A DNA stretch of 64,000 nt from Dictyostelium discoideum (Eukaryota), in assembly GCA_000004695.1 (NCBI GenBank), contig CM000150.2, positions 128,001 to 192,000 on the forward strand, written 5' to 3'. Shown one piece after another: positions 9,035 through 33,892 of this stretch. Under the pieces are notes generated by a model that was given only the letters and a program-made list of their open reading frames with translations, searched no databases and was not told the DNA's origin. The translations under genes were made by a program, and so were the position numbers. The stretch's first letter is position 1; each line of letters begins with the position of its first letter.

Positions 9035-9135
9035 ATCTCAACTATCGGAAGCAGGACCCGCCATCATATTTAAAATGATAGGTGTGCCGCCATCTTCCAT
9101 GTACGCTATGAGTGTTGCGTTCTGAATTGTAGGAC

Positions 9136-10849: not shown

Positions 10850-11762
10850 TATTTATATTATCATATATATATATATTATGAATAACATTTATTTATTTGA
10901 ATTTCCCAAATATTTAAGATAATTTTTTAGAATGTTCTAGAACATTTGAAGAATAAAAAATTTTCAAAAGAAAAGTAAAAATTTCGAACAGGCACAATGA
11001 CGAGATAATTGCGCAAGGTCGAAAAACATAAAAATACCGAACCGACACAATGCACAAATTTGTGAAGGGTCGAAAACACTTATTTTTTTGAGTTTTGCGA
11101 AATTTTTAAGAAAATAAAAACGTATAAATAGTAGCACTAAAAACTAAAACAATTTGATTTATTTTATTTGGGAATTCCTCCTATATATATTTAAGATATA
11201 CACACACACAAATTTTATACAAATAATTATTTCTCTTTATTAATTTTTAATATTATTATTTTTCTCATATTATAATTTTAGATATCAAAAATAAAATATG
11301 TCTACAACTGTTAATAATAATTATACCTCTAGTAGTAGTACCTCTGCCTCTAATAGCGCTGAATCCTTTGATTTAAGAATGAAATCAATGGAGGATCAAA
11401 TCAACAACCTTTCTTTAGACTTTACAAGATTCATGAAAGAACCTATGTTCTCATCTAATACCAATTCACGTAGCCAACCTTCTCATGATGATTCTGACAC
11501 TGAGAATGAACAAAGTGAAGATGAATCAAGTAACAATGTCGATGTTCCAACCGATTATAAATTATCCGATACCTTACTTGGTCAGTACAAACATATGGTA
11601 AACAATCAAGGTTTACTCGTCGAAGAAGAATGTATCCTCAAGAAAGATGAGATATCCGAATTGAATAAAGTATTCAACTTTCCATCCAACTTCCAAGTCA
11701 ACGTCGCTCCATTCGGTACACCTGAAGGTATTACTGTATCATCCAACGTCAAGAACAATGAT
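10850..11762 (+). mobile_element. DIRS-1 5' fragment: left ITR plus first 155 codons of ORF1, then truncated
   Basis: ITR 10850-11180, HSE at ~10930, ORF1 11298..11765 ends in stop where homology is lost. Confidence 0.8.
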
Positions 11763-11765
11763 TAA
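11298..11765 (+). pseudogene. DIRS-1 ORF1, 3'-truncated
   Basis: 155 aa identical in register to ORF1 N-terminus. Confidence 0.75.
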
Positions 11766-12419
11766 TGTAAAAAAATAAAAAAAAATAATAAAAAAAATGA
11801 AACCATAAAACATAAATAAAATGATATGTTTTATTTTTTAATTTAATTTTGTATAAATATTTGTGAATACAATGAGAAATAATATACCGGGTTACACTGA
11901 ATTATATAAATAATAACATAATCTTTCTGAAAAACTTATTAATTTTTTTTTTTTTTTTTTTTTATTTTTTTATTTTTTTTTTTTTTAGTAATTGTTGACT
12001 AAAACCTATAAATATTTTCATTTATGTAACTACTGTATTCTAAACTTAACTATAATTATATATTTGATATGTGTTTATTAATAATTTACCATTATAAATT
12101 GTAAAATAATTTTTAATTTTTTTTTTTTTTACCTTTTTTTTTATCTTTAATTTTTTTTTATCTTTTTTTTTTAACCTTTTTTTTTTATCTTTTTTTAACC
12201 TTTTTTTTATCTTTTTTTTTTTTTTTCTAAAATATTATTGCTACATTTGTTGTTAAAAAAAAATAGGAATTTTATTTTTTTTTTATATTTTTTTTCATCA
12301 CACATTCACAAACATGCTTTATTTTTTAAAAAAAAAATATTTAAATTAAAAAAACATGCTTTATTTTTTTTTACAAAAATAAATTTTTTTTTTTTTATTT
12401 TTTTTTTTAAACCTATAAA

Positions 12420-13121
12420 CACAGCAAAGAAAAATGCACCTTTAAAGCAAATTTAAAGTAAAGTTGATTTAAATTGGATTTAAATTGAATTTAAAGCCGC
12501 GTTTAAAAAATTCATTTTTAAGGTAATTTTTAAGGTAATTTTTAAGATATTTAAAAATGCCTTTAAAATTTGCTTAAAAATTTATTTTAAAGGTAATTTT
12601 AAAGGTGATTTTTAAGGTAATTTTTAAAATGATTTTTAAGATATTTAAAAATACCTTTAAAATTTATTTTAAATTAATTTTAAATAGGATTTAAAGTAGA
12701 TTTAAAGTAGATTTAAAGTGAATTTAAATTTCCTTAATATATAAATTTAAGGTTTTTAATAAAAAAGATCTAATTATAGATAAAAAAAATGGGGATAAAA
12801 TATTCTATCATTTTTAAATTTTCATCAAAGCAATCAAATGGTCGGGGGATCGAATCCCTTTTGGTAATTTTTGAAAAAATTAAAAAAAAAAAATTTAAAA
12901 AATTTATCCGTTAAATAACGGCTTCGAACTCAGGACCTCGCTTTTAAAGCGATTAAAAAGGTAATTTTAAAGGTAATTTTAAAGGTAATTTTAAAGGTGA
13001 TTTTAAAGTAACCTTAAAAATTACCTTTCAAATTACCTTTAAAATTGCTTTAATTCAGGACTTTAAAGCAAATTTAAATTTAATTTAAAGCGAATTTAAA
13101 GGTGGTTTTTTCTTTGCTGTG
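12420..13121. mobile_element. MITE-like non-coding TIR element (termini cacagcRaagaaaaa...ttttcttYgctgtg), DDT/thug-like Dictyostelium DNA-transposon derivative; family assignment uncertain
   Basis: ~28-bp imperfect terminal inverted repeats, subterminal ggtaattttaaagg repeats, internal T-arm-like motifs. Confidence 0.6.
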
Positions 13122-13473
13122 AAATATTTTGCTTTTTTTTTTTTTTTTTTTTTTTTATTATTTTTTTTTACCAACACATAACGACTCTTCCTTACTTATA
13201 ATATATAAGCAAATAACATTAAAAAAATTGTTAAATTATTTACATAACTTTTACGTAAAAACGAACGGATTTTTATTTTTATTTTTATTTTTTTTCAATT
13301 TTTTTTTTTTTTGTTTCGGTTATTATTTTTCAGACTTAAATTATTATTTATAAATTAAATATAAAAAATAATATTGCATCATCTGGAAATGGTAATTATT
13401 TAAATTGATATTATCCAACTTCGCTTATTTTAAATAAAAATGAAACTGCACTAAATCAAAACTGGTAAGGTAA

Positions 13474-14027
13474 GATGATTTTTAAGGTAATTTTTAAGAT
13501 AATTTTTAAGATATTTAAAAAATACCTTTAAAATTTATTTTAAATTAATTTTAAATAGGATTTAAAGTAGATTTAAAGTATATTTAAAGTGAATTTAAAT
13601 TTCCTTTAAGTATAAATTTAAGGTTTTTAATTAAAAAGATCCATTTTTAGATCAAAAAAATGGGGATAAAATATTCTACCATATTTAAATTTTCATCAAA
13701 GCAATCAAATGGTGTAATGGTTGATGAGACTATCCTTTGATAGAGGGTCGGGGGATCGAATCCCTTTTGGTAATTTTTGAGAAATTAAAAAAAAAAATTT
13801 TAAAAAATTTATCCGTTAAATAACGGCTTCGAACCCAGGACCTCGCTTTTAAAGCGATTAAAAAGGTAATTTTAAAGGTAATTTTAAAGGTAATTTTTAA
13901 GGTGATTTTAAAGTAACCTTAAAAATTACCTTTAAAATTACCTTAAAAATTGCTTTAATTCAGGACTTTAAATTCGCTTTAAATTAAATTTAAATTTGCT
14001 TTAAAGGTGGTTTTTTCTTCGCTGTGT
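13474..14027. mobile_element. MITE-like TIR element, 5'-truncated copy
   Basis: Matches internal and right-terminal parts of 12420-13121; ends ...ggtggttttttcttcgctgtg. Confidence 0.55.
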
Positions 14028-14735
14028 TAATGCCGATTTTTTTCATTTTTTGTTTTGTTTCTAATTTTATTTTGAGGATTTGAAAAATCTTGTTTATTTG
14101 GTTTTGAATTGTGAAAGTCAATAATATCTTTTTGATTTCTAAAATTTCCTTCTTTTAATAAATAATCGACACCTCTTGGTTTATCACATGTATGACATGA
14201 GAAATCATTGCAATTATAATGGTTAATCCTACAAGATGATCTAAATTCTGTTATATGCATTGTTAATCCATATGGTATAATTTCATAATCATTTTCATTA
14301 TTATCTTTAATTTTTAATTTATTATTAAATTGCGCTGAAAATAATTTTTTAATTGTTTGATGTATATTGTGAAACCATTCTTTTGGAACAATAAAAAAAA
14401 CAATTTTATTATTTTTAAAAAATGGACCAACATAATTTTCAAAATCTACCAATAATGTATAATCTGATCTACCTTGATGACTCATTCCTTCACTAAATAT
14501 TCTTAATAAAATAAATTTATATAAAATTGAATTTTTTATTTTATTAAACTGTTCTCCAGATTTATAATTTTTATAAATACCTTGCTCATAGTCTTTTGAG
14601 AAATCTAAATATTCTAAAAAATTTTTTTTTTCAATTAATAATTTAACAACTGAATAAATTTCAAAATAAAAAATTGACTCTTCATTTGTAACTCAAAAAG
14701 TGACCATCGATAGGTAAATTTGCTAAAAATATAGA
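14027..14735 (-). pseudogene. Fragment of a divergent paralogue of the 30505..33024 transposase (covers ~aa 255-485), truncated where the MITE terminus at 14027 begins
   Basis: ...SIFYFEI...LLRIFSEGM...GLTMHITEFRSSCRINHYNCNDFSCHTCDKPRG aligns to the full-length protein; stop codon directly abuts cacagcg. Confidence 0.55.
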
Positions 14736-14743
14736 ATCCATAC

Positions 14744-14783
14744 ACAGCGAAGAAAAAACCACCTTAAAAGCAAATTTAATCTA
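14744..14783. repeat. Solo TIR of the MITE-like family
   Basis: cacagcgaagaaaaaaccaccttaaaagcaaattt, no matching partner nearby. Confidence 0.5.
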
Positions 14784-15410
14784 AAAAAAAAACAAAAAAA
14801 GTATTATTTTAGATTTCTTCAACTTCATCAATAATATCAATGCTTTCAAAACCAATCACCAGTTCTTTTAAAATAAATTGATACTACAATTAAATAATAG
14901 CTGGTAAGTTAATATAATTTTTTTTTAAAAAAAAAAAAAATTAAAAAAAAAAAAAAAATAAATAATAATAATAAAATAAAATAGATAGACTAATTTGAAA
15001 AATAATAATTATATTTTAGGTTACCTTTCTTATTATACCAACAACCACTTCTTTTCAATCAAATTGATACTTCACTTATATAATAACTGGTAAGTCAATA
15101 TAATTTTTTTTTTTTAAAAAAAAAATAATAATATAAAATAAAGAGATTAATATAATTTAAACAATTATATTTTAGGTTGTTTCTTCTTTTATTAGAACCT
15201 GTAAAGTAAATGCTTTTGGTACAAATTATAATGGAAATAAAGTTCTGCTTTTCAAATTAGTCAATTATAAATGTTGTATTACCATTAAATAAAAAAAATT
15301 TCTGATTTCAAATACTTTTACTTTTTAATTAATTCTTTTTTTTTTTTTTTTTTTTTTAAATTTATTTTAAATTATTATTATAAAATGTTATTTTTAATTT
15401 TTATTTTTAA

Positions 15411-15715
15411 GTATTCTTATTAAGTGAACTTTATAATTACCCTTAATAATTACCCTTATTAATTATAATTAATAATTCCACTTAATAGTTATACTTAATA
15501 ATTATACTTAATAATTTTAATTATTAATTATATTTTATTATTATACTTAATAATTATGCTTAATAAATATACTTTTTAATTATACTTAATAAATATACTT
15601 AATAAATATACTTTTTAATTATACTTATTAATTATACTTAATAAATATACTTAATAATTATACTTAATAATTATACTTAATAAATATACTTATTAAGTAT
15701 ACTTAATAATAGTAC
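15411..15715. repeat. AT-rich tandem satellite (unit ~ATACTTAATAAATATAC / TTATACTTAATAA)
   Basis: ~18 imperfect tandem units visible by eye. Confidence 0.6.
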
Positions 15716-15719
15716 TATT

Positions 15720-16989
15720 TACGTTCCTACTTTAAAGATGCTTTTAAGTATTTTTTTTCGCCCCTGTGGAGATTAACACCCTCATTTAGGGGATGTCTTG
15801 ACCAGAACACAGGTTATCCCCTTATTTTTTCTTTTAATTCAATGGAGGAATGTCATGCCATGTAAACCTTTTGATTTTGGTAACAGGACAAAACGCACTG
15901 CAGCGGTCGATAAAGCCAAGCGAGTTGCTAATCCAATTCGTCGTACTCAGTTACTGAAGAAGATTCGTTAATGACTGATCGGAAAGTCAGCATCGCTAGA
16001 ATGGTAGATTGTCGTTGAGATGCAGGGCGTAAAGCCCAGCTATTGGCAAAGATGTAAGCGGCTTAAGAGCCCCTAATTAGTATCCGCGGTCACGGCCGCA
16101 CATCCTAGCCTATGGGCTCACACCAATGCGTAATATGGTAGCAAAAATCATGTCAGATGAAGACATCCCAGATCATGATACCCGTACATGGTATTGTCTC
16201 CAGTATCCAATAACCTCAATCTGCCATCAAACCAAATTATAATATTTAAAAAAAAAAATTTGAATCTCAAAAATCATTTTCTAGATCTGAAAAAACCCAC
16301 TTAAATTATTATTAAATTACTATTTTTTTTAATAATTTAGTAAATAGATATTTTAAGTCATAAATTAAGCGATAAAATCTATTTTTTTGGTTAACCAGCA
16401 TAGTCTAGGTGTTTATCTATTTAATATGTTTTTTGTGGATAATAAAGCATATTTCAATCACTAATGATATTTATTAAATTTATTAAATTTGTTTATTTTT
16501 TTTTTCCGTGATGGAAAATGGTAAGACCATTAGTTCGTTCTGCATTGCCCATTACATCACCACTTCTTACATGTCAGCGTCTGGTGAAGTTACGCTGGGT
16601 GATGCAGCCGATAAAGAGACACAGTTCGCTATTAACTCGACTGGATCGATTAATATGTAAGCGCCACGTTTTGTTCTGAAGGGTATTCGGGATGAGAGAA
16701 CACCTGTTTTTGAATGCTCATGAATTATCCAGCATAGTATGTGGAATTCTATAGACCCTATTACCAGAAATACGACCACGGAAGATCTTGGTTCGCAACG
16801 CGTTTGCTGAAGTGGTTCACACACAACTATCCAACAGCGGTGATTGATGTGGTTAAGTCCGTGGCCCTGGTTCTTGTTAAACATCGCGATTTGATTGGTA
16901 ACCCATCATTCATTGACACAGAGTGGTTTTTGGATGGTGAGTGTTTGCGTCATCTTAATAACGCACTGGTCATGGAAAACGAACCGGTT
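15720..16989. other. GC-normal island B, prokaryote-like
   Basis: Ends exactly at DIRS left-ITR terminus 16990; contains SD-preceded small ORF. Confidence 0.55.
15856..15972 (+). CDS. Small basic ORF (MPCKPFDFGNRTKRTAAVDKAKRVANPIRRTQLLKKIR)
   Basis: GGAGG 6 nt upstream of ATG (caatGGAGGaatgtcATG). Confidence 0.3.
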
Positions 16990-17025
16990 TATTTATATTA
17001 TCATATATATATATATATATTATGA
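16741..17025 (+). CDS. Hypothetical ORF in island B, runs into the DIRS ITR, probably truncated
   Basis: GC-normal codon usage; no recognisable motif. Confidence 0.2.
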   Translation: MEFYRPYYQKYDHGRSWFATRLLKWFTHNYPTAVIDVVKSVALVLVKHRDLIGNPSFIDTEWFLDGECLRHLNNALVMENEPVYLYYHIYIYIL

Positions 17026-17079
17026 ATAACATTTATTTATTTGAATTTCCCAAATATTTAAGATAATTTTTTAGAATGT

Positions 17080-17101
17080 TCTAGAACATTCGAAGAATAA
17101 A
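17080..17101. promoter_or_regulatory. Perfect 4-unit heat-shock element in DIRS ITR (GAAtgTTCtaGAAcaTTCgaag)
   Basis: Alternating GAA/TTC at 5-bp spacing. Confidence 0.55.
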
Positions 17102-17443
17102 AAAAATTTTCCAAAGAAAAGTAAAAATTTCGACCCGGCACAATGATGCGATAATTGTGCAAGGTCGAAAAACTGAAAAATTCGGAACCGACACTATGTA
17201 CAAAGTTGTGAAGGGTCGAAAACTCTTATTTTTTTGAGTTTTGCGAAATTTTTAAGAAAATAAAAACGTATAAATAGTGGCACTAAAAACTAAAACAATT
17301 TGATTTATTTTATTTGGGAATTCCTCCTATATATATTTAAGATACACACACACACAAATTTTATACAAATATTTATTTCTCTTTATTAATTTTTTATATT
17401 ATTATTTTTCTCATATTATAATTTTAGATATCAACAATAAAAT

Positions 17444-19357
17444 ATGTCTACCACTGTTAATAATAATGATGCCTCTAGTAGTAGTGCCTCTGCCTCTAAT
17501 AGCGCTGAATCCTTTGATTTAAGAATAAAATCAATGGAGGATCAAATCAACAACCTTTCTTTAGCCTTTACAAGATTCATGAAAGAACCTATTTTCTCAT
17601 CTAATTCCAATTCACGTAGCCAACCTTCTCATGATAACTCTGACACCGAGAATGAACAAAGTGAAGATGAATCAAGTAACAATGTCGATGTTCCAACCGA
17701 TTATCAATTATCCGATACCTTACTTGGTCAGTACAAACATATGGTAAACAATCAAGGTTTACTCGTCGAAGGAATCAAGAATCTACCATCAATGGTCAAA
17801 CAAGGTTATTACATGGTAAAACTCGATATCAAGAAAGCCTACCTCCACGTTTTAGTAGATCCGCAATACAGAGACTTATTCCGCTTCGTGTGGAAAGGTT
17901 CGCACTACCGTTGGAAAACAATGCCGTTCGGGTTATCGACAGCTCATCGTATCTTTACAATGTTGTTAAGACCTGTACTTCGAATGTTGAGAGATATCAA
18001 CGTATCCGTCATCGCTTACTTGGACGATCTATTAATCGTCGGTTCAACAAAAGAAGAATGTTTATCCAACCTCAAAAAGACGATGGACTTACTTATCAAA
18101 CTAGGTTTCAAGTTAAATCTAGAAAAGAGTGTTCTCGAACCAACTCAATCAATTACGTTTCTCGGATTACAAATCGATTCAAAATCAATGAAGCTTCTTG
18201 TTCCCAAAGAAAAGAAGAAAAGTGTCATCAAGGAAATAAGAAACTTTTTAAAACTAGATTGTTGCTCCCCAAGAAAGCTTGCTGGTTTAAAAGGAAAGCT
18301 AATTGCACTGAAAGATGCAGTTATCCCATTCAGACTTTACACTCGTCGAACAAACAAGTTTCACTCTCAGTGTCTGACTCTAGCCAATGGAGATTGGGAT
18401 CAATCATTCCACATTCCTCAAGATGTCAAGTCAGAGATTTCACATTGGTTAACAGTTCTAAACCAATGGAATGGAAAAGAAATCAGTCTGTTTCCAAGTT
18501 ACGACTATGTTCTTACAACCGATGCCTCGGAATCAGGTGCAGGTGCCACACTCAAGAAAGGAAGCAAAGTAATCAAAACTTGGTCATTCCAGTGGTCAAT
18601 AACTCAATCAAACATGTCGTCAAATCGTCGAGAAATGCTCGCGCTGCTGATGGCCTATCAAGCGCTATGTCAGAAACTGAACAACTGCAAGCTGAAGATT
18701 CAAACCGACAACACTACCACTCTCTCTTACATCAATCGCCAGGGTGGTCAGATACAGGATCTCTCAGTTCTGTTCGAACAACTTTGGAAACAATGCCTCA
18801 AGAAGAAAGTGAACTTGATTGGAGAGCATATTCCAGGATTCTTCAATGTAAAAGCCGACCACCTCAGTCGTCTTTCAGAGATGAATCACAAATCATCGTC
18901 CAGAGTAATCAAGAGTTACAACTGGCAACTGAAGAAGGAAGTGTTCAATCGCATCCAACTTCAATTCGGTCAAATACAGATGGATCTGTTCGCATCTCAC
19001 TTCAACCATCAAACGAACAACTACTCAACAATCAGAATGAATGCACTCCACCTCGATTGGAGTCAATGGAAGCAATGTCTGGCCTTTCCACCACCCATTC
19101 TTTTGCCTTCTATCCTGGAGAAGATGAACTCATCCAGTTCGAAGAAGGTTTCTATAATACTGATCTTCCCAATCTGGAGATCAGCAACTTGGTATCCGAT
19201 GATTCAAGCTCAAGTTCCTCGTCATCATCGTCACATGTTTCCTCAAGTACTGGGAACATTCCAAGAAGTATTGACCAAACAATCAGTAGAGTCGATACCA
19301 ATCCAGATTCAACAACGTTGGAAGCTGGGGATTATTCAACTTTCCAATCTCATGTAA
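17444..19357 (+). CDS. DIRS-1 ORF1(N-terminal 108 aa)-RT/RNase H fusion ORF created by the deletion
   Basis: ...NNQGLLVE|GIKNLPSMVKQGYYM...; 637 aa open. Confidence 0.8.
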   Translation: MSTTVNNNDASSSSASASNSAESFDLRIKSMEDQINNLSLAFTRFMKEPIFSSNSNSRSQPSHDNSDTENEQSEDESSNNVDVPTDYQLSDTLLGQYKHMVNNQGLLVEGIKNLPSMVKQGYYMVKLDIKKAYLHVLVDPQYRDLFRFVWKGSHYRWKTMPFGLSTAHRIFTMLLRPVLRMLRDINVSVIAYLDDLLIVGSTKEECLSNLKKTMDLLIKLGFKLNLEKSVLEPTQSITFLGLQIDSKSMKLLVPKEKKKSVIKEIRNFLKLDCCSPRKLAGLKGKLIALKDAVIPFRLYTRRTNKFHSQCLTLANGDWDQSFHIPQDVKSEISHWLTVLNQWNGKEISLFPSYDYVLTTDASESGAGATLKKGSKVIKTWSFQWSITQSNMSSNRREMLALLMAYQALCQKLNNCKLKIQTDNTTTLSYINRQGGQIQDLSVLFEQLWKQCLKKKVNLIGEHIPGFFNVKADHLSRLSEMNHKSSSRVIKSYNWQLKKEVFNRIQLQFGQIQMDLFASHFNHQTNNYSTIRMNALHLDWSQWKQCLAFPPPILLPSILEKMNSSSSKKVSIILIFPIWRSATWYPMIQAQVPRHHRHMFPQVLGTFQEVLTKQSVESIPIQIQQRWKLGIIQLSNLM

Positions 19358-20322
19358 TGTCCTTCGCTCGTACTACAAATACAAAAACAGCTGAGCTGTT
19401 AATGAAGTCATGGGAACCTTCAACTCTCAAAGTATATAGCTCCAGTTATACAAGATTCCGCAATTTCTGTACGTTGAACTCTTTGAATCCAGCAAACATA
19501 ACCTTAGTTGTTTTCATGGATTATCTTACACATCTGTTCAAGCACAAACCTCCGTTAGCCTTCTCAACAATTAACGGTCATCGCTCTATGTTGAATCAGT
19601 TGTTACTCCTTAGGAATCAAACTGATATTGTTAATGATCCATTCATCACAAGAATTATGACTGGTATTCACAAGTTGCGTCCTTCATCTGCAAAGTATAA
19701 AGAGATATGGGATGCAAATCAAGTATTCAAGCACTTATCTACTGTCAAAGTCATCCCTAAGTACACATACACTGCGCTATTAAACAAGACACTTGTACTC
19801 TGTAAAATGTTTGGTTTAGCAAGATCATCAGACTTGGTGAAGTGGTCGTTCAAAGGTCTCATTATTACTACTGACTCAATCAAAGGTCCAGTCATTAATG
19901 CTAAAGAACAAAGAAGTGGTGTTGTTTCAATATTAGAATTAACTTCGTTAGATGATACAAACTCTCAAGTGTGCCCTGTTCGCCACCTTGCAACATACCT
20001 TAGAGCCTCTAAAGGAAGAAGAAAGCCCCATTCGGGTGACCCTGTCTTTATTAAGAATGAGGGTGAACCGCTCCAAGTTAATGATATTAACTCAATTGTA
20101 CTATCAACGCTCTCAAAGTCAGGCATTGATATTGTCAAGTTCAAATCTCACTCTACCCGTTCCGCTATGGCTTCTCTGCTGTTGTCCAATAACGTTCCGT
20201 TCCACGTTGTCAAGAAGATGGGTCGTTGGAAATCAAACGATACTGTAGATTCCTTCTACGATAAAAGAATCATTGGTGAAAAATCTGGTGGTTTCTTAAA
20301 TACTGTCGTCCAAATTTCATAA
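17890..20322 (+). CDS. DIRS-1 ORF2 (tyrosine recombinase C-terminal domain intact)
   Basis: HSTRSAMAS and GRWKSNDTVDSFY motifs present. Confidence 0.75.
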   Translation: MERFALPLENNAVRVIDSSSYLYNVVKTCTSNVERYQRIRHRLLGRSINRRFNKRRMFIQPQKDDGLTYQTRFQVKSRKECSRTNSINYVSRITNRFKINEASCSQRKEEKCHQGNKKLFKTRLLLPKKACWFKRKANCTERCSYPIQTLHSSNKQVSLSVSDSSQWRLGSIIPHSSRCQVRDFTLVNSSKPMEWKRNQSVSKLRLCSYNRCLGIRCRCHTQERKQSNQNLVIPVVNNSIKHVVKSSRNARAADGLSSAMSETEQLQAEDSNRQHYHSLLHQSPGWSDTGSLSSVRTTLETMPQEESELDWRAYSRILQCKSRPPQSSFRDESQIIVQSNQELQLATEEGSVQSHPTSIRSNTDGSVRISLQPSNEQLLNNQNECTPPRLESMEAMSGLSTTHSFAFYPGEDELIQFEEGFYNTDLPNLEISNLVSDDSSSSSSSSSSHVSSSTGNIPRSIDQTISRVDTNPDSTTLEAGDYSTFQSHVMSFARTTNTKTAELLMKSWEPSTLKVYSSSYTRFRNFCTLNSLNPANITLVVFMDYLTHLFKHKPPLAFSTINGHRSMLNQLLLLRNQTDIVNDPFITRIMTGIHKLRPSSAKYKEIWDANQVFKHLSTVKVIPKYTYTALLNKTLVLCKMFGLARSSDLVKWSFKGLIITTDSIKGPVINAKEQRSGVVSILELTSLDDTNSQVCPVRHLATYLRASKGRRKPHSGDPVFIKNEGEPLQVNDINSIVLSTLSKSGIDIVKFKSHSTRSAMASLLLSNNVPFHVVKKMGRWKSNDTVDSFYDKRIIGEKSGGFLNTVVQIS

Positions 20323-21313
20323 TATATATATATATATGATAATATAAATTAAAAATTTAATTTATTAAATTATATTTTATATTAAATATATATATATATA
20401 TTAGTCCCATCCCACCCGCCCTTAGTCGGAATTCCATAAATCAAATTGTTTTAGTTTTTATTGCCACTATTTATACGTTTTTATTTTCTTAAAAATTTCG
20501 CAAAACTCAAAAAAATAAGTGTTTTCGACCCTTCACAACTTTGTGCATAGTTTCGGTTCAGAATTTTTCAGTTTTTCGACCTTGTGCAATGATCGCGTCA
20601 TTGTGCCGGTTCGAAATTTTTACTTTTCTTTCGAAAATTTTTTTTATTCTTCGAATGTTCTAGAACATTCTAAAAAATTATCTTAAATATTTGGGAAATT
20701 CAAATAAATAAATGTTATTCATAATATATATATATATATTTAATATAAAATATAATTTAATAAATTAAATTTGTAATTAAACAGAACCCTGAGACGTATG
20801 TGGTCTACCAGAAGGTATCAAATGTAGCAAATCGCGTGCTTTAGAACAATCGCATGTATTCGGTGTGTTATGTATTCCAACGTACCATACCCGTAATCAT
20901 TCGTTTGGTTTCAAATATGTGTTGGTATCGAAGAACCTACAGCGTCTTCAACCAGGTGAGCACCTTGCGGCGGGGGACAATTTTTGCACACTCCCCTAAT
21001 TTGACAGAGGGCGGTGACTAAATACGGGTGTGAAACTAACGTGTGTTTCATGTCACTACCAGAAGTCGAACAGGATGGAATGATTGCTACGGAATCATTC
21101 GTTAATGCCATGGCGTGTGATAAGATGGAGAGTCGTTTATTGCAATGGGGTGAGAACAATGTACTTGTTAAACAACTACAAACCTTATCCAGTGATCGGG
21201 GAACAAATTCGGGATGATGGTTTTTTATTCGCAATGCGCAATATCGAATCTGATGTTGGTCTGGTCAACATGACTGCGAAAGCATTGATGGAAGTGGATG
21301 TCATCTTGGATAA

Positions 21314-21835
21314 ATGCGTGTACGGCGACCTAGTGCAACGGTAATCAACATTACCATCAAGTCCAACCGCCTGCGTACAGGTCGTTCAGAAGTTCAGTTC
21401 TATGATAAACAATCCGACCCCTATGAAAAAGCAGACCGTGACTTTCCTATCAATCTGCGTGGTGTGTATGAAACATTATTGAGTCGTCACCCACATACCT
21501 TAATGTTAGAGCCTAGTCTGAACACTTTGGTCAATAATGCCATATCTGATACCGGTGGTTTGGATCGTCGAATGAATGCCCAAACTGGTGCAATCTTGGC
21601 GATGGATAAAGGTGTTCAGATCTATAACAAGTTCCTATCGGCTACTGGCGTGCTTAGATCTCTTTTGTTAAATGCATTGTGGCAGGTGTGCGTTTCAAGA
21701 TCTCTGACAGTCATGAGGGTAAAGGTGTTATCGTTCATGTCTTTAAAGATGAAGATGCACCGACATGGCGTGCGTACAGATGTCATCGTGGATAACGCCT
21801 CTATCACTAAAACTCTATTGAACAGTTTGAGTTGA
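21314..21835 (+). CDS. Hypothetical protein (173 aa)
   Basis: GC-normal ORF, stop overlaps next start. Confidence 0.3.
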   Translation: MRVRRPSATVINITIKSNRLRTGRSEVQFYDKQSDPYEKADRDFPINLRGVYETLLSRHPHTLMLEPSLNTLVNNAISDTGGLDRRMNAQTGAILAMDKGVQIYNKFLSATGVLRSLLLNALWQVCVSRSLTVMRVKVLSFMSLKMKMHRHGVRTDVIVDNASITKTLLNSLS

Positions 21836-22452
21836 TGTCCAACAGTCCTATCTATCAGTCCAAAGCAAACCGTGATCATCATGTGAGCTGGGTGATTGAA
21901 CATGAAGTAGAGCTGCTAGCGTTAACTGATCGCTTGTATTATGGGGCAGAGCAGATTCTTCGCATTAAGAAGAACCATGACTTCCCAACATATCCTGCTC
22001 GTTATCGAGCACCTTATGGGAGGTTTGTGATAACTCGTGATCCAGTAATGATTGTACCAGTGTATATCATCCTGTTGGAAAAGATGAGGGAATATTTGGT
22101 TTCCTATGCAGTGCCTAAGTTAATGCACTTCGGTACTTTATCTATTATTACTCAAGTAGACAAGTACGCCCTCCCTTGGCGTAATGTACCAACTCGTTTG
22201 GCTGGTGAGTCAGACATTCGTCTGTTCTGGCGGCTGGTACACAAACCGTCTATTATCATTGCCAATACACCGGCAATGCAGAAAGCAGTAGGTAAGTTAT
22301 TGCGTCATGAGAATCCAATGCGTATTGACAATTTGATGGATGAAAGTGTATCTCCACTAGGTCGTAATCGACCAGTGCAGATGTATAAACACATGCAAGC
22401 TTGTCGTGGTATTCGCTTTGAACGTCAATTGTTAACTGAAGGGGCCGCTTAA
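21832..22452 (+). CDS. Hypothetical protein (206 aa)
   Basis: ATGA/TGATG translational-coupling junction with upstream ORF. Confidence 0.3.
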   Translation: MMSNSPIYQSKANRDHHVSWVIEHEVELLALTDRLYYGAEQILRIKKNHDFPTYPARYRAPYGRFVITRDPVMIVPVYIILLEKMREYLVSYAVPKLMHFGTLSIITQVDKYALPWRNVPTRLAGESDIRLFWRLVHKPSIIIANTPAMQKAVGKLLRHENPMRIDNLMDESVSPLGRNRPVQMYKHMQACRGIRFERQLLTEGAA

Positions 22453-22468
22453 AGCAGATCGGCAAGAT

Positions 22469-23059
22469 TTGCTAATGAATGGAGAGCAGATCTGGTCGTT
22501 AGATCCTCAGTGTAATAATCCTAAAGTTCAGGTTCTCGCTGAGGATAAAACTTTTGAGATGTTGGTGCGTCCTCTGATAGCCAGCTGGCCAATTCAGAAG
22601 TTCCAAGAAGGGATGGCTCTGGGTAAGCGGCATTTCTTAACAGGGTTCCGCATTTCAAACAAAGGTATCCGTAACATACTGACCGAAGGGTATCGTGACT
22701 ACGATATGATCATTGTACAACTAATGGGCACTGATCTGACCGGTGGGTTCATCGATGTAGTGAAATTTAACTCATTACAAGCCCGTACCATTAACCATAT
22801 CAACAACGCCTTTGTTGCAAGAATTCCTGAATATGTCACTACTGCAAGTATGGTTGACTATTTAGAGATTCTATTATTCGTCAAGTTCGAGCAGGTCTGG
22901 TTTAGTTCCAGAAATCTATCGGCTAGGCTTATAAGAAAGGACTGGGCCATATCAAAAACCCTGATAAATTTCCAAAGAATCAAATCGCTGAGGATATCAA
23001 ACAAGGCGGTGTTTCCGATGGCCAGACTGCTCAGGTGTTTATCTCATGTGGTTACCTAA
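22469..23059 (+). CDS. Hypothetical protein (196 aa)
   Basis: 16 bp after previous stop, same strand. Confidence 0.3.
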   Translation: MLMNGEQIWSLDPQCNNPKVQVLAEDKTFEMLVRPLIASWPIQKFQEGMALGKRHFLTGFRISNKGIRNILTEGYRDYDMIIVQLMGTDLTGGFIDVVKFNSLQARTINHINNAFVARIPEYVTTASMVDYLEILLFVKFEQVWFSSRNLSARLIRKDWAISKTLINFQRIKSLRISNKAVFPMARLLRCLSHVVT

Positions 23060-23718
23060 CCGACCATAACTCCAGGATCTTTGTTCGTCCTGTTACGGTC
23101 AAGGTATTGGTAGCTTCTATGAAGCCTTTGTTGAATCACATTCTGCTACTGAGGCCATGATCTTTACCAAGAAACCATTGGAGGATTCAGAATGGTTTAA
23201 CCGTAAGTTACAATTGGTCGGTTAGGCCATACAGCGCGTCCATCTTGGTGAGGATTGAGGTACTCAAATTACAGTACCGGTAATAATGCGTCCAGGCTGG
23301 TCCGGTGTAATGGCGGGTAAGTATTACGTAGACGACAGTGGTCAGATGTAAGCCATTCATGAGAAAGATGAAGGTAAACTGCTGCGTATAAGGTCACTAA
23401 TGTATTGTCAGCATAAATATCGTTCGGGTGTTTATGAGCGCTGTTATGGTAAGTTGGCTATGTCGATCCCGTATTTCAACGTACTGGGCAAGATAGGGAA
23501 AAACGAAGCCATTGCTGGGCACGTGTCCGCAACAGAATTTGATGCTGCTTTATAACAGAAGATGTTGTCCACTAAACACCTGGATACTTCTTCTACGGTG
23601 GATCCGTTTATCATTCATCGTGAAGATGCAATTTATATAACGTGTGGTATTCGTGATAATACTGCTGGTTTAAACCTACGACTGAAAGGGCAGAATGTAG
23701 CCAGATGACGTAGGGATT

Positions 23719-24099
23719 GTGCTTGATCAGTTCTTAGAGTTACTTAACCGACTTCTACAGGTGAATATCGTTCATGCTGAAATGATTCTGTACTCGGTAA
23801 TGGTGCGTGACCCAAGCAAGTTGGATCATTGCTTACCGCGCGCTAACGAACAACGGCAGTTTAGTTCTTATCACGAATGTATCGAATTCCCCAGTCTTTT
23901 GGTGCAGTTGCTGTATCAAGAGCAAGCGGATGTTATGATGAAACCCATGACGTTCTTAATTGATAACCGTCAGTCACATCGGCAGATAGATTATATTACC
24001 CATCTGTTCAAGCACAAACCTCCGTTAGCCTTCTCAACAATTAACGGTCATCGATCAATGTTGAATCAGTTGTTACTCCTTAGTATCTTTGCAGACTAA
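23719..24099 (+). CDS. Hypothetical ORF whose C-terminus is encoded by an embedded DIRS-1 ORF2 fragment
   Basis: ...ITHLFKHKPPLAFSTINGHRSMLNQLLLL is DIRS ORF2 sequence. Confidence 0.25.
   Translation: MLDQFLELLNRLLQVNIVHAEMILYSVMVRDPSKLDHCLPRANEQRQFSSYHECIEFPSLLVQLLYQEQADVMMKPMTFLIDNRQSHRQIDYITHLFKHKPPLAFSTINGHRSMLNQLLLLSIFAD
23994..24083 (+). mobile_element. 90-bp DIRS-1 ORF2 fragment embedded inside island C
   Basis: ~97% identical to 19534-19620 (copy-3 variant); flanks on both sides are GC-normal non-DIRS sequence. Confidence 0.8.
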
Positions 24100-24110
24100 G
24101 GGGTAGGGCG

Positions 24111-24506
24111 ATGCGCACTACGGCAACGCTTATCATTGGTAATCATGGATTTACGGTTAAAGACTACAATGATGAGTTCTACAGTAAGGCAAGGGCGTAC
24201 TGCGCACGTTTCGTTAAATACCGGATTGAATCTAAGGTCGTCCAAGGACGGAGATCTTTTGTCAAGGTACCAGATCGTGTATTCGGCTCAGCTTCGAAGG
24301 ACCGTAAAGAGCTACACATTAACTGTTTAGCTGAATTTAAACAATTTATGTTGAATAGTGGTTGGAACCCTGAACGGTTCAAAGAAATCACCAGGGAATT
24401 ACCTGAGGGACGAGATGTCAATTCCAATGACCACCAGGTTGCAGTACCAGTTAGAGAAAGATCCTTCTGGTATCACGACCCGAATCAATACATTGCAAAC
24501 GGGTAA
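24111..24506 (+). CDS. Hypothetical protein (131 aa)
   Basis: taAGGGGtagggcgATG SD-like context. Confidence 0.3.
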   Translation: MRTTATLIIGNHGFTVKDYNDEFYSKARAYCARFVKYRIESKVVQGRRSFVKVPDRVFGSASKDRKELHINCLAEFKQFMLNSGWNPERFKEITRELPEGRDVNSNDHQVAVPVRERSFWYHDPNQYIANG

Positions 24507-24615
24507 AGGAAAGACATTCTATGCCATATACAACATGTTCAAACTGCAGAAGCTCACTGGCATTATGTTAATGCCGAAGTACATCACGACTTGGCATACT
24601 GGCTTACATGACTTT

Positions 24616-25334
24616 CACAGCGAAGAAAAAACCACCTTTAAAGCAAATTTAAAGCAAATTTGATTTAAATTGGATTTAAATTGAATTTAAAGCCGCGTTT
24701 AAAAAATTCATTTTTAAGGTAATTTTTAAGGTAATTTTTAAGATATTTAAAAATGCCTTTAAAATTTGCTTTAAATTAAATTTTTAAGCAATTTTTAAGG
24801 TAATTTTTAAGGTGATTTTTAAGATAATTTTAAGATATTTTAAAAATACCTTTAAAATTTATTTTAAAGTAATTTTAAAGAAGATTAAAAGTAGATTTAA
24901 AGTGAATTTAAATTTCCTTTAAACATAAATTTAAGGTTTTTAATAAAAAAGATCTAGTTTTAGAACAAAAAAATGGTGATAAAATATTCTATCATTTTTA
25001 AATTTTTCATCAAAGCAATCAAATGGTGTAATGGTTGATGAGACTATCCTTTGATAGAGGGTCGGGGGATCGAATCCCTTTTGGTAATTTTTGAAAAAAT
25101 TAAAAAAAAAATTTAAAAAATTTATCCGTTAAATAACGGCTTCGAACTCAGGACCTCGCTTTTAAAGCGATTAAAAAGGTAATTTTAAAGGTAATTTTAA
25201 AGGTAATTTTAAAGGTAATTTTAAAGTAACCTTAAAAATTACCTTTAAAATTACCTTTAAAATTGCTTTAATTCAGGACTTTAAAGCAAATTTAAATTTA
25301 AAGCGAATTTAAAGGTGGTTTTTTCTTCGCTGTG
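24616..25334. mobile_element. MITE-like TIR element copy
   Basis: cacagcgaag... to ...cttcgctgtg. Confidence 0.6.
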
Positions 25335-25469
25335 AAAAGATAATAATTTAATAAACTTTAAATGTTTTTTGAAAAAACACATTTAGGGTCAGTGATTTTT
25401 TTTTTCACTGCGCTACTGTAGTGAAATTAAATAATAAAATTAACTACGCTACTGTAGTGAAATTTTATT

Positions 25470-26825
25470 GAAAATTCCCTACAACAATTTGGTTTGGTTG
25501 AGTGAAAATTTGTAATATCATCTTGTTTTCATAATGTACCTGATTGGCAAATAAATAAACCATCTCTTGGCTTGTCACATGTGTGACATGAATATTCATT
25601 TGAATTATGTCCATTAAGTTTACACGATGCTCTAAATTCTGGAATATCCATTGTCAGTCCCAACGGTACAACATCTATTTGTTCGTTTTCAATAATTAAA
25701 TTAAAGCCAATACCAATAAAAGATGAAAACAATGTCATAATGGTTTGATGAAAATTAAGTAACCAATCATTTGGTACTACAAATAATAATAATTTATTGT
25801 TTTTAAATTCATTTCCAATATAATTTTCTATATCCAGCATTATAGAATAATCTTTCTTGTATTGACACCGCATACTATCAGTGAATATTCTAAGTAAAAC
25901 AATTTTATTTTTATTTTTATTTTTCGAATCTTTAAATTGTTGACCACTTTTATAATTTGTATAAATTCCAGTTTCAAAATGTGTATCAAAATCAATTCTA
26001 TTAAAAAATTGCTTTTTATTCAATAAAGTTTCTAATACTTTTTTAATTTCAAAATAAAAAATTGAGTGATCATAATTTTTATTTATAAATGTTTCTCCTT
26101 TTATTTGAAAATTTTCCATAAATAATTTATCCATATATAGAGGTGTGTATCTTATTAGATTTAAATTAGTTTATTTTTGTCAATAAAACTTTTAAATTTT
26201 TCAAGTAGCTTTAAACTTATTGAGTTTTCAATTCCCAACATTAAAAATTCAATTTCAGTTTCATTTAATTTTTTTTTGATTTTTTATTATCTAAATTATT
26301 ATTTTGATTATTATTTATTGGTTCATTTTGACCATTTTCATTATTTTCATTATTTTCATTATTTTTTGCTCCATTTTGATCTATTATATTTTCATCATCA
26401 CTATGTCGCAACCTAATTGTATCATGATTTTCTTCATTATCAATTGTTTGATTGTTTTCATTATTTTCATTATTTTCTTGATAAATAATTTCATCTTGGT
26501 TTTGGTTACATAAATGTTTACATGGGTCATCTATATCATTTGTTGGATATTTTATTTTTTCACCAGTAATATCCATTGATTTTTTATAAAAGCTATCTCT
26601 TTTTGGATTATTTGTAATAATTTTACTTTGTTCATTTTTACATTTTTTGGTGTTGAAATGTCCATTTCCATCATAAAATTGTTTATAAGAACGGTAATAT
26701 GAAAGACAAAATGGACATATATTTTTATGCATAATATAATGAATAATAATATTTTTAAAATTCTTTAATTTTTCTCTGCAATTAATGCATGATATGTTAT
26801 TTAAATTCATTTTGTTTGCAGTCAA
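25470..26825 (-). pseudogene. Degenerate copy of the zinc-finger transposase gene (frameshift between 26134 and 26265, nonsense TGA at 25529, 3' truncated)
   Basis: ORFs 26265..26825 and 25529..26134 match aa 1-180 and 230-430 of the 839-aa protein; homology continues past the stop (KQDDITNFHS). Confidence 0.65.
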
Positions 26826-26902
26826 ATGACCTATCAGTGAATAATTGAATTAATTATAATTAACTCAGCATATTTTAAAAAAGATGGAGTTATCCTAGAA
26901 AT

Positions 26903-27472
26903 CACAGCGAAGAAAAAACCACCTTTAAATTCGCTTTAAATTAAATTTAAATTTGCTTTAAAGTCCTGAATTAAAGCAATTTTAAAGGTAATTTTAAAGG
27001 TAATTTTTAAGGTTACTTTAAAATTACCTTTAAAATTACCTTTAAAATTACCTTTTTAATCGCTTTAAAAGCGAGGTCCTGAGTTCGAAGCCGTTATTTA
27101 ACGGATAAATTTTTTAAATTTTTTTTTTTAATTTTTCAAAAATTACCAAAAGGGATTCGATCCCCCGACCCTCTATTAAAGGATACTCTCATCAACCATT
27201 ACACCATTTGATTGCTTTGATGAAAAATTTAAAAATGATAGAATATTTTATCCCCATTTTTTTGTCTAAAATTAGATCTTTTTTTATTAAAAACCTTAAA
27301 TTTATTTTAAAGCGATTAAAAAGGTAATTTTAAAGGTAATTTTTAAGGTGATTTTAAAGTAACCTTAAAAATTACCTTTAAAATTACCTTAAAAATTGCT
27401 TTAATTCAGGACTTTAAATTCGCTTTAAATTAAATTTAAATTTGCTTTAAAGGTGGTTTTTTCTTCGCCGTG
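26903..27472. mobile_element. MITE-like TIR element copy, inverted orientation, terminus ~90 bp upstream of the minus transposase pseudogene
   Basis: cacagcgaagaaaaaaccacctttaaattcgc ... cttcgccgtg. Confidence 0.6.
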
Positions 27473-27725
27473 CTTAAAAATCACCTTTAAAATAAACTTT
27501 AAAATGACCTTGAAAATTACCTTTAAAATTATCTTTAAAATGACCTTTAAAATTACCTTTAAAATGCTCTTTAAAATTAAGTTTAAAATGCCCTTTAAAA
27601 TTAACTTTATAATGCTCTTTAAAATTACTTAAAAATATGATTAAAAATTATATTAATAATTACATTTTAAAGTTCCTTAAAAATTGAATTTTAAAGTTTA
27701 TTAATAATTACATTAAAGCACCTTA
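27473..27725. repeat. Fragment of a second MITE family (C-family), reverse complement of 34259-34507
   Basis: Direct comparison of the two stretches. Confidence 0.5.
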
Positions 27726-28865
27726 CACAGCAAAGAAAAATGCACCTTTAAAGCCAATTTCAAGCAAATACAATTTAAATTTGCTTTAAATTGGCTTTAA
27801 ATTTGCTTTTTAAAAAGGTAATTTTAAGGATATTTTTAAGGTCATTTAAAATTACATTAAAAATGACCTTTTAAATTTATTATAAAGCGGTTTTTAAATA
27901 ATGTTTTAATCACTTTATAATAAATTTAAAAAAGTTATTTTTAATGTAATTTAAAATAACTTATCAATCCTTTTTTAAGCTTTTATTACACAGCAAAGAA
28001 AAAACCACCTTTAAATTCGCTTTAAATTAAATTTAAATTTGCTTTAAAGTCCTGAATTAAAGCAATTTTAAAGGTAATTTTAAAGCGAATTTAAAGGTGG
28101 TTTTTTCTTTGCTGTGTAATAAAAGCTTAAAAAAGGATTGATAAGTTATTTTAAATTACATTAAAAATAACTTTTTTAAATTTATTATAAAGTGATTAAA
28201 ACATTATTAAAACCGCTTATAATAATTAAAAGGCATTTTATGTAATTTAAGACCTAAAAATCCTAAATACCTTTTTAATGGCTTTAAAAGCGAGGTCCTG
28301 AGTTCGAATCCGTTATTTACGAATAATTTTTTAAATTTTTTTTTTATTTTTCAAAAATTACCCAAAAGGGATTCGATCCCCCGACCCTCTATCAAAGGGT
28401 AGTCTCATCAACCATTACACCATTTGATTGCTTTGATGAAAAATTTAAAAATGATAGAATATTTTATCCCCATTTTTTTGTGCTAAAATTAGATCTTTTT
28501 TATTAAAAACCTTAAATTTATGTTTAAAGGAAATTTAAATTCACTTTAAATCTACTTTTAATCTACTTTAAATCCTATTTAAAATTAATTTAAAATAAAT
28601 TTTAAAGGTATTTTTAAATATCTTAAAAATTATCTTAAAAATTACCTTAAAAATCACCTTTAAAATCACCTTTAAAATCACCTTTAAAATTGCTTAAAAA
28701 TTTATTTTAAAGCAAATTTTAAAGGCATTTTTAAATATCTTAAAAATTACCTTAAAAATTACCTTAAAAATGAATTTTTTAAACGCGGCTTTAAATTCAA
28801 TTTAAATCCAATTTAAATCAACTTTTCTTTAAATTTGCTTTAAAGGTGCATTTTTCTTTGCTGTG
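27726..28865. mobile_element. Nested cluster of MITE-like copies including a 128-bp mini-element (27989-28116) flanked by inverted repeats
   Basis: Multiple cacagcaaag / ctttgctgtg termini; 27900-27996 is inverse of 28127-28225. Confidence 0.5.
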
Positions 28866-29471
28866 TAATTATATTTTTTAAAATACATTTTAAATGCATT
28901 TTAAATACATTTCAAATCAATTTTTACACTATTTATTCCAAATTTATTAAAAAAAAAAAAAAAAAATAAGAAAATAAAAAAAAAAAAAAAAATTAAGAAA
29001 ATTAAAAAAAAAAAAAACTAAAAAGATAACCAAATTAATTTTAATTCTTTATTTATTTGTTTCAGTGGCAATTGAATTCTATTATTATTATTTTTATTAA
29101 TTAATAAAAAATAAGTGTTTCAGTTGCCTTGGGTTTTATATTATTTTATTTTAAATTTTACTTCTCATTTCAAAAAGCGAAAAATATCAAAAAAAAAAAA
29201 AAAAAAATTTAATTATTTGTTTTGCATATTTATATTATAAGTATAAACATACATATAAAAAAAGATTTTTTATTTTTTATTTTTAATAATTAATAAACAA
29301 TTAACGAGTGCACAGGTATATTATTGCATTAGTGTAGTTTTACAATAAATTGGGCAGATTTTATAGTTTTTTTTTTAATATTTTAAAAAGAAAAAGGTAT
29401 AGACAGGGTCATAGGTTCCCCGTCATTTTTTGAAAATGGGGTATATCCCTCTAAATATAAAATTCTAAGTA

Positions 29472-30373
29472 CACAGCAAAGAAAAATGCACCTTTAAAGC
29501 AAATTTAAAGAAAAGTTGATTTAAATTAGATTTAAATTGAATTTAAAGCCGCGTTTAAAAAATTCATTTTTAAGGTAATTTTTAAGGTAATTTTTAAGAT
29601 ATTTAAAAATGCCTTTAAAATTTGCTTTAAAATAAATTTTTAAGCAATTTTAAAGGTGATTTTAAAGGTGATTTTAAAGGTAATTTTTAAGGTAATTTTT
29701 AAGATAATTTTTAAGATATTTAAAAATACCTTTAAAATTTATTTTAAATTAATTTTAAATAGGATTTAAAGTAGATTTAAAGTAGATTTAAAGTGAATTT
29801 AAATTTCCTTTAAACATAAATTTAAGGTTTTTAATAAAAAAGATCTAATTTTAGAACAAAAAAATGGTGATAAAATATTCTATCATTTTTAAATTTTTCA
29901 TCAAAGCAATCAAATGGTGTAATGGTTGATGAGAATACCCTTTGATAGAGGGTCGGGGGGATCGAATCCCTTTTGGTAATTTTAGAACAAAAAAATGGTG
30001 ATAAAATATTCTATCATTTTTAAATTTTTCATCAAAGCAATCAAATGGTGTAATGGTTGATGAGACTATCCTTTGATAGAGGGTCGGGGGATCGAATCCC
30101 TTTTGGTAATTTTTGAAAAATTAAAAAAAAAAATTTAAAAAATTTATCCGTTAAATAACGGCTTCGAACTCAGGACCTCGCTTTTAAAGCGATTAAAAAG
30201 GTAATTTTAAAGGTAATTTTAAAGGTAATTTTAAAGGTAATTTTAAAGGTAATTTTAAAGTAACCTTAAAAATCACCTTTAAAATTACCTTTAAAATTGC
30301 TTTAATTCAGGACTTTAAAGCAAATTTAAATTTAATTAAAAGCGAATTTAAAGGTGGTTTTTTCTTCGCTGTG
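29472..30373. mobile_element. MITE-like TIR element (with ~100-bp internal tandem duplication at 29900-30090) ending 131 bp upstream of the transposase ATG
   Basis: TIRs at both ends; duplication of the ...ggtgtaatggttgatgag...gggtcggggggatcgaatccc segment. Confidence 0.6.
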
Positions 30374-30504
30374 TACTAAATCATATATCTACTTTCTATA
30401 ATGCTAAAATTTGAATAAAATGAAAAAAAAAAAAAAAAAAACGTAAAAACTCGAGGAAAAAAAAAAAAAAAAATATTATTTTTAATTTCCAGCCAGCAAA
30501 CAAA

Positions 30505-33024: not shown

Positions 33025-33142
33025 AAACTTTTTTACATAATTTTTACATTGTTATGTAAATAATGATTTTTTTTTTTTAATTTTTTTTCATTTTCGGGCA
33101 GACTGAAAAAGCGAAAATGATTTCAATACATATTTTTTTAAA

Positions 33143-33448: not shown

Positions 33449-33481
33449 TATTCAGATGGCGATGTATGTTACCAGATTAAT

Positions 33482-33516
<35 letters not shown>

Positions 33517-33797: not shown

Positions 33798-33836
<39 letters not shown>

Positions 33837-33892
33837 GAAATATAGTTTTCCCCTGCTTTACTTTCTCTTTTTCTCAGCCACATTAATTATGA

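Follow-up and report, generated by a model that had tools for sequence, protein, structure and literature searches.

Clusters of DIRS, DDT and Skipper elements have been reported at the centromeric tips of Dictyostelium discoideum chromosomes, where DDT elements account for about 20% of the DNA and are found preferentially within DDT-rich stretches (PMC2665215). According to a 2017 review, the transposases of D. discoideum DNA transposons resemble none known (PMC5633606). We analyzed a 64,000-nucleotide stretch of this genome (GenBank assembly GCA_000004695.1, contig CM000150.2, positions 128,001 to 192,000 of the forward strand; hereafter the window) and, within it, a small repeated element with copies at 12420-30373. 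The repeats of this species, including the DDT family, were reportedly catalogued by Glockner et al. in 2001 (Genome Res 11:585), and DDT-S is said to be about 0.8 kb long. Our literature search, which did not take in that 2001 catalogue paper, found no descriptive account of DDT-S, of MITEs (miniature inverted-repeat transposable elements) or of CACTA- or EnSpm-like elements in Dictyostelium. Among CACTA/Mirage/Chapaev (CMC) transposons, termini begin with 5'-CAC, and the target duplication is 2 bp for Mirage and 3 bp for CACTA; that of the Drosophila Foldback (FB) element is 9 bp. The copies in the window very probably represent a single non-autonomous DNA transposon of the cut-and-paste type that derives, with its interior replaced, from an approximately 5-kb DDT element and is most probably the catalogued DDT-S with DDT-A as its partner. 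Both names are our presumption. The pairing of an approximately 5-kb partner with a short non-coding relative agrees with it, the size fitting the 0.8 kb of DDT-S. The setting agrees as well, since the window comes from the same species and is a centromere-type DIRS/Skipper/DDT cluster as described (PMC2665215).

Copies were located by BLAST of 24616-25334 against the window, and two multiple alignments were built. Three loci from other D. discoideum assemblies (L001, L002 and L003) were reached through relatives of ORF839, a transposase open reading frame (ORF) of the window. The result was one family with a non-coding consensus of 759 bp, represented by seven copies or fragments in 12420-30373 and by three further copies inside an 11.9-kb duplication. 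The other three loci hold at least 6 copies, which are 96-99% identical to the consensus apart from one diverged-subfamily copy at 81%. A family of copies had been proposed in a first-pass annotation of this DNA, and its coordinates proved correct within 1-3 bp. Its description of the family as non-autonomous and similar to miniature inverted-repeat transposable elements (MITEs) also held, as terminal inverted repeats (TIRs) are present and no coding capacity was found in the small element (longest ORF, 21 amino acids). The copies are as follows.

12420-13121, plus strand: copy A, full length, 702 bp, with a 35-bp deletion in the tRNA-like segment and an AA/AA target duplication
13471-14026, plus strand: copy B, truncated on the 5' side (covers about consensus 215-759); a transposase gene fragment abuts its right terminus
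14743-14779, plus strand: stub C, a 37-bp left end, earlier called a solo TIR
24616-25334, plus strand: copy D, full length, 719 bp, without target duplication, at a junction of unrelated flanks
26903-27472, minus strand: copy E, rearranged, 570 bp, both arms of right-arm type around the core, without target duplication
27989-28865, minus strand: small element within DDT-A, 877 bp, TA/TA flanks, consensus 1-604 intact, right arm replaced by a fold-back
29472-30373, plus strand: copy G, 902 bp, within DDT-A, TA/TA flanks, full length plus a tandem duplication of 131 bp that affects the tRNA-like module (29846-30117)
51584-52285, 52635-53190 and 53907-53943, plus strand: duplicates of copy A, copy B, the gene fragment and stub C, within the 11.9-kb duplication

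The TIRs are about 27 bp long and start with CACAGC, and 24 of the first 27 positions match between the two ends. The sequence CACAGC[AG]AAGAAAAA[TA][GC]CACC was found at every intact end. Within the window, the 12-bp motif AAAGGTRATTTT was counted 60 times, compared with 0.18 occurrences expected by shuffling; it is present in both orientations in the arms and is confined to the small elements and the autonomous partner. GGTCGGGGGATCGAATCCC and, on the minus strand, GCGAGGTCCTGAGTTCGAAGCC were found in all copies with a retained core. The shared termini, subterminal arrays and T-arm-like core strings noticed at first pass were confirmed.

The partner was found complete at L001:9218-14251, a 5034-bp element with termini CACAGCAATGAAAA..., TG/TG flanks and two genes. 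Its positions 1-301 align to consensus 1-289 of the small element (left end) and its positions 4856-5034 to consensus 580-759 (right end). Consensus 344-579 has no counterpart in the partner, making about 235 bp of the core foreign to it. In addition, the left TIR of the small element is identical to the first 29 bp of the DDT-A copy that begins at 27726 in the window. Because the ends are shared and the interior is unmatched, we regard the small element as a derivative of the partner with a replaced interior. We read its core as most likely passenger DNA that was captured and is dispensable for transposition.

A direct repeat of 2 bp flanks 9 of the 11 two-ended elements (AA, TA, TA, GG, TG, TA, TT, TT and TT), including the TG/TG of the autonomous copy. 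Two random dinucleotides would match by chance at this composition in roughly 1 of 9 cases by our own estimate; the duplication of 9 of 11 flanks is therefore far beyond chance. Any 2-bp sequence can thus be duplicated at the target, TA being only one of them, and GG and TG occur although the DNA is AT-rich. Alignment of all copies, proposed at first pass as the way to define a consensus and a target duplication, thereby yielded both, the 759-bp consensus and this duplication. Target duplications of 3 bp or 5 bp were considered and rejected. Also rejected was 14743-15768 as a single element, its two flanks being different.

ORF839 (30505-33024, 839 amino acids) matches D. discoideum proteins only. 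A profile of its family was searched against 1.8 billion representative proteins and returned 82 matches, about 60 of them distant relatives (E 1e-8 to 1e-3) matching over the C-terminal catalytic half; one match is from a thrips and the others are from environmental assemblies. Among 20 distant relatives that were scanned, 6 carry Pfam Transposase_21 (tnp2/CACTA family) above the curated cut-off, 2 have sub-threshold DUF4218 matches, and 5 match DUF1258, one of them above the cut-off. Alignment of the DDT family with eight relatives by hhalign gave a probability of 99.3% and an E-value of 2.6e-20 over 534 columns, with D, D, CxxC, HxxxH and E motifs aligned as listed here; the aligned D, D and E correspond to D318, D395 and either E641 or E644 in ORF839.

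LLRIFTD in the DDT family, ..NTDG in the distant relatives
TMDIPEF in the DDT family, ADAPAR in the distant relatives
CHTCDK in the DDT family, CNTCEQ in the distant relatives
DILHN in the DDT family, EYMHN in the distant relatives
NFHLLLHYP..WGAPKYTSAETFE in the DDT family, NVHQLLHLP..WGPLWATSAFMFE in the distant relatives

This profile-profile similarity suggests that ORF839 is a distant CMC-type DDE transposase. The profile similarity, the CAC-initial termini, the 2-bp duplication and the 12-bp arrays together led us to group DDT with CMC. The small element is like CACTA, En/Spm and Mirage in that its termini begin with 5'-CAC, its target duplication is short, its subterminal 12-bp motif arrays lie in both orientations, as in En/Spm, and the transposase of its partner is similar at the profile level to Transposase_21 proteins. 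It is unlike CACTA in having the terminus CACAG and an amoebozoan host. The link between the DDT transposase and CMC may be unreported.

The small element retains approximately 290 bp of the left end of its partner and 180 bp of the right end, including the TIRs and the AAAGGTRATTTT arrays. We propose that the partner transposase would move it in trans, each insertion duplicating 2 bp of target whatever the sequence. On the model of maize En/Spm, we regard the 12-bp arrays as putative binding sites of an element-encoded protein. Copies accumulate inside other DDT elements in the centromere-type cluster.

Several observations weigh against this reading. Copies D and E have no target duplication; copy D lies between unrelated flanks and copy E is rearranged. 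Neither ORF839 nor 15 relatives matched any Pfam transposase family, ORF839 itself falling below every Pfam threshold (unlike CACTA transposases), and its AlphaFold model was poor (predicted local distance difference test score of 41), too poor for a fold search; for these reasons the CMC assignment rests on profile-profile similarity through intermediates. Finally, the core (consensus 331-506) is 92% identical between subfamilies, compared with 81-83% for the arms, which could mean that the core is not a mere passenger; this is weak evidence of constraint because the arms are repeat arrays that align poorly.

The core itself contains more of a tRNA than had been noticed. Consensus 437-507 (71 nt) aligns end to end with positions 1-71 of the Rfam tRNA model, and a cloverleaf can be drawn. 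The young copies have an anticodon arm whose 5-bp stem (ACCCT/AGGGT) is perfectly paired and encloses the 7-nt loop TTGATAG. In the acceptor stem, 6 of the 7 positions are paired. The anticodon differs by parse, being GAU with Rfam and UUGA in an 8-nt loop with ARAGORN. The D arm looks Gln/Glu-like. With the D. discoideum A-box and B-box motifs TRRYNNARYNG and GTTCRANNC taken from PMC5391098, TGGTGTAATGG is the only A-box match in the element, and its place in the tRNA-like sequence is exactly +8. On that strand, the B box GATCGAATC departs from the motif at one position; the other strand has a perfect B-box core, GTTCGAAGC, roughly 60 bp downstream. A T5 run immediately follows the 3' end of the tRNA-like sequence, and a T4 run lies within the 3' acceptor strand. 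In copy D these features are placed as follows.

25017-25087, plus strand: tRNA-like segment, with A box TGGTGTAATGG at +8 and B box GGATCGAATCC, A for T54
25140-25172, minus strand: partial second tRNA-like fragment with an anticodon-stem-like hairpin, variable region and T loop, the rest lacking; B-box core GTTCGAAGC at 25139-25147

We therefore read the core as a degenerate full-length tRNA-like sequence with a T run behind it and, on the opposite strand, the 3' half of a second such sequence. The first-pass annotation had described T-arm-like strings that did not fold into full tRNAs. The isolated T arm gave way to a 71-nt full-length segment with its A box at +8, while the absence of a tRNA gene stood, as every score fell below threshold. 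The Rfam tRNA model (RF00005) gave 12.4 bits for an old copy in the window and 14.8 bits for a young copy, against a threshold of 29 (multiplied by the 4,227 families, the E-values are 6.6 and 0.75). ARAGORN at default settings found no tRNA in the window or the three loci, and reported the tRNA-like segment only at 80% of its normal threshold (-ps80). RNA folding of the tRNA-like segments was no better than that of shuffled sequences (z of -0.3 to -0.5). Metagenome contigs scanned for the exact D-arm/anticodon stretch gave no match.

It is conceivable, and compatible with the identification as a DDT-S element, that the tRNA-like core has a function of its own. The A and B boxes would recruit TFIIIC and RNA polymerase III (Pol III), and the element would disperse sites for them that could act as chromatin boundaries, as small-RNA units or as places where tRNA-targeting retrotransposons land. 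The sole stringent A-box match at exactly +8, the B box with a single mismatch alongside a perfect GTTCRANNC core on the other strand, the T5 run directly after the 3' end, and the higher conservation of the core than of the arms all speak for a function. A/B-box loci without tRNA context can, moreover, be targets of TRE5-A, as for the loci of the ribosomal DNA palindrome (Spaller et al. 2017, PMC5391098), which resemble the present core in having tRNA-type boxes at tRNA-like spacing and no functional tRNA. Those loci, however, are proven TRE5-A targets with a consensus B box, whereas here the same-strand B box is mismatched and none of the 14 copies examined has a TRE insertion, or any retrotransposon about 48 bp upstream. 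TRE elements are, in addition, nearly absent from centromeres (PMC2665215). The low Rfam scores, the relaxed threshold needed for detection by ARAGORN, the folding no better than shuffled, the A for T54 in the B box, the T4 run inside the 3' acceptor strand and the loss of 35 bp of the segment from copy A likewise argue against a function. Taken together, these data make a functional core unlikely, and a shade more so the specific case in which the A/B-box module is a working TFIIIC/Pol III site spread through centromeric clusters, for example as boundaries or small-RNA units.

Other RNA models gave little. Rfam at gathering thresholds found nothing in the whole window. With permissive settings, hairpins of the arms matched mir-3938, mir-548 and MIR5185, which are MITE-derived microRNA families, far below the cut-offs; we read these matches as generic AT-rich hairpins. 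None of the published D. discoideum microRNAs, which were tried as a marker of thug-S, was found in the window. The sequence named miRNA-like_D4 (UCGAACUAGUCCAAUCUUUAAU, PMC4894637) has exact matches at L002:22067-22088 and L003:19963-19984 (minus strand), and none in the window or the small element.

The nesting of small elements in related elements, claimed at first pass, is seen at 27989-28865 and 29472-30373, both within a single DDT-A copy. The DDT-A-type sequences of the window are as follows.

27726-34504, plus strand: DDT-A-type copy, positions 1-4786, truncated by Skipper
27726-27988, plus strand: left end of that copy, positions 1-258
28866-29471, plus strand: continuation of that copy, 5' non-coding region
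30374-34504, plus strand: rest of that copy to position 4786, with the 839-amino-acid transposase ORF at 30505-33024
25486-26818, minus strand: DDT-A-type fragment, positions 2158-776, in which the transposase ORF is represented by its 5' part
27473-27725, minus strand: right subterminal array of another DDT-A-type copy, positions approximately 4838-4544
63483-63672, plus strand: DDT-A-type right end with TA on the flank, inserted into another DDT-A copy
63674-64000, minus strand: the DDT-A copy, in reverse orientation, that is the target of that insertion

A composite small element had been drawn at 27726-28865. Its left boundary, 27726, is instead the left terminus of the DDT-A-type copy, and the sequence actually inserted is 27989-28865, which has TA/TA flanks and interrupts an otherwise continuous stretch of the partner. 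An inverted repeat spans its left boundary; the arms and the order of segments are as follows.

27876-28037 and 28068-28229: arms of the inverted repeat
27897-28208: palindrome, arms 27897-28026 and 28079-28208, perfect at 130 of 130 positions around a 52-nt spacer, with the proposed mini-element 27989-28116 inside
27726-27988: DDT-A positions 1-258, the first segment in order
27989-28081: right arm of the small element, reverse (consensus 759-667)
28082-28116: last 35 bp of that right end, forward
28117-28264: inverted copy of DDT-A positions approximately 263-85
28265-28865: remaining small element, reverse (consensus 604-1)
28866 onward: DDT-A resumes

The first-pass annotation had placed here a 128-bp mini-element made of two TIR regions, at the center of an inverted repeat of 27900-27996 and 28127-28225. 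The inverted repeat is real and its arms are longer than that; the mini-element is probably not a unit of its own. Each perfect arm comprises 92 nt of flank joined to 38 nt from the end of the element, with no break at the boundary, and both of the supposed TIRs of the 128-bp unit are of right-end type for 38 nt, while normal copies have unlike ends. The 128-bp unit is most likely the hairpin tip of a fold-back inverted duplication. In this sequence of events, a normal insertion would have come first; a later fold-back (template-switch) duplication would have copied 38 bp of the element end together with the adjacent flank, and its product would have rejoined the small element at a shared AAAAAGGTAATTTT stretch. 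The alternative, that 27989-28116 is an independent mini-MITE inserted at the exact center of an existing palindrome, is improbable. Its ends do match, TA lies on both sides, and Rfam hairpin models of MITE-derived microRNAs gave weak scores. In addition to the unbroken arms and the matching right ends, however, the flanking TA is self-complementary, so that any inverted duplication would give rise to it; the inverted flank duplicates the neighboring DDT-A 85-263 and is joined at the shared AAAAAGGTAATTTT; and no second copy of the 128-bp unit was found in the window or the three loci.

The fold-back duplication is not the only rearrangement. The two right arms of copy E, 171 nt long, are 91% complementary. 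A right subterminal segment of about 27 bp (GCAAATTTAAATTTAATTTAAAGCGAA) is found in either orientation among the copies, for example at 13972-13998 compared with 25285-25306; the orientation common to the diverged subfamily and DDT-A looks ancestral. We attribute the instability of the copies to their long, internally palindromic arms, from which would follow the fold-back duplication, the two-right-arm variant, the 131-bp tandem duplication, the 35-bp deletion and the 27-bp flip. Long, mutually pairing arms of short tandem repeats, such as the 171-nt inverted arms of copy E, are also a likeness to Foldback elements and MITE hairpins. Normal copies of the small element differ from Foldback elements in their two unlike arms, unique core and 2-bp duplication.

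Two other classes of element fit poorly. Several copies are flanked by TA/TA, as would be expected of a Stowaway-like MITE moved by a Tc1/mariner transposase, yet other copies have AA, TT, GG or TG duplications, the termini start with CACAG, and the partner with the shared ends encodes a protein of CMC type rather than mariner type; this class is therefore very improbable. Least credible of all is a tRNA-derived short interspersed nuclear element (SINE), a retroposon without inverted termini and the alternative raised at first pass, which would account for a tRNA-like segment with A and B boxes but is ruled out by the central rather than 5' position of that segment (consensus 437-507), the approximately 27-bp inverted termini, the long arms homologous to a DNA transposon, the fixed 2-bp duplication, and the lack of an A-rich tail or one resembling a long interspersed nuclear element (LINE).

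Small elements also interrupt a transposase gene of a sister family.

14027-14742, minus strand: sister-family transposase gene fragment, 91% identical to the protein P0018 and 50% to ORF839, with element termini on both sides

Homology to the gene ends exactly at the termini 14026 and 14743, and two insertions therefore interrupted it. An insertion into the transposase gene had been claimed earlier together with a stop codon created by it. The interruption was upheld; the stop was not. The TAA at 14027-14029 lies wholly in the flank, where the frame is already shifted off the conserved protein frame, and the conserved frame (...KKIGI) reads directly into the element terminus. The stop was thus not made by the insertion, which truncates the gene. 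Separately, the terminus of a second related family, ...TTTTTTTTCGCCCCTGTG (TIR CACAGGGGCGAAAAAAA), was observed at 15430-15768 (and 54600-54932), L001:22252 and L002:14807, preceded by arrays of a different 12-bp motif (TATACTTAATAA). This second family is probably the source of the interrupted transposase (the P0018 group, about 50% identical to ORF839).

The window as a whole is a DIRS-1/Skipper/DDT transposon cluster of centromere type. It is AT-rich with blocks of higher G+C, in which the long ORFs encode retrotransposon proteins. By Pfam scan, the neighbors include DIRS-1-type proteins (reverse transcriptase, RNase H, Dam methylase and tyrosine recombinase) and Skipper-type proteins (reverse transcriptase, RNase H, integrase and chromodomain). 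Self-comparison of the window identified a direct segmental duplication of 11.9 kb (7435-19305 and 46599-58469, 99.8% identical) that contains DIRS-1 pieces and three small-element copies. Because of this duplication, the copies at 12420-13121, 13471-14026 and 14743-14779 are present twice, and their duplicates are not independent insertions. The duplication could be genuine, or a repeat cluster may have been collapsed or expanded in the assembly. Skipper-type sequence is present three times in 34505-46493 and 58570-63267 at 99.4-99.6% identity (34505-39886 with 41111-46493, and 36573-40814 with 58570-62812), and one Skipper copy cuts off the DDT-A-type element at 34504. An ambiguous base (n) is present at 63249.

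A 3.8-kb block at 20776-24615, with 38-43% G+C, contains five consecutive plus-strand ORFs of 126-206 amino acids. These ORFs have no Pfam match, and the block is single in the window and was not found in the three other loci. Its right edge adjoins copy D, without target duplication. Between copy D and the DDT-A fragment, the 150 bp of 25335-25485 contain repeated CTACGCTACTGTAGTGAAATT and match neither element family.

As a repeat family, the small element is ordinary, almost certainly already catalogued and of low novelty; it is of little importance in itself and fits a DDT family that makes up about one-fifth of the centromeres. Its copies are clean examples of palindrome-driven rearrangement in centromeric DNA. 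The A/B-box module is of note in a genome where several retrotransposon families home on Pol III genes. The placement of the transposase in CMC, together with the 2-bp duplication, would give the "unclassified" DDT transposons a mechanism.

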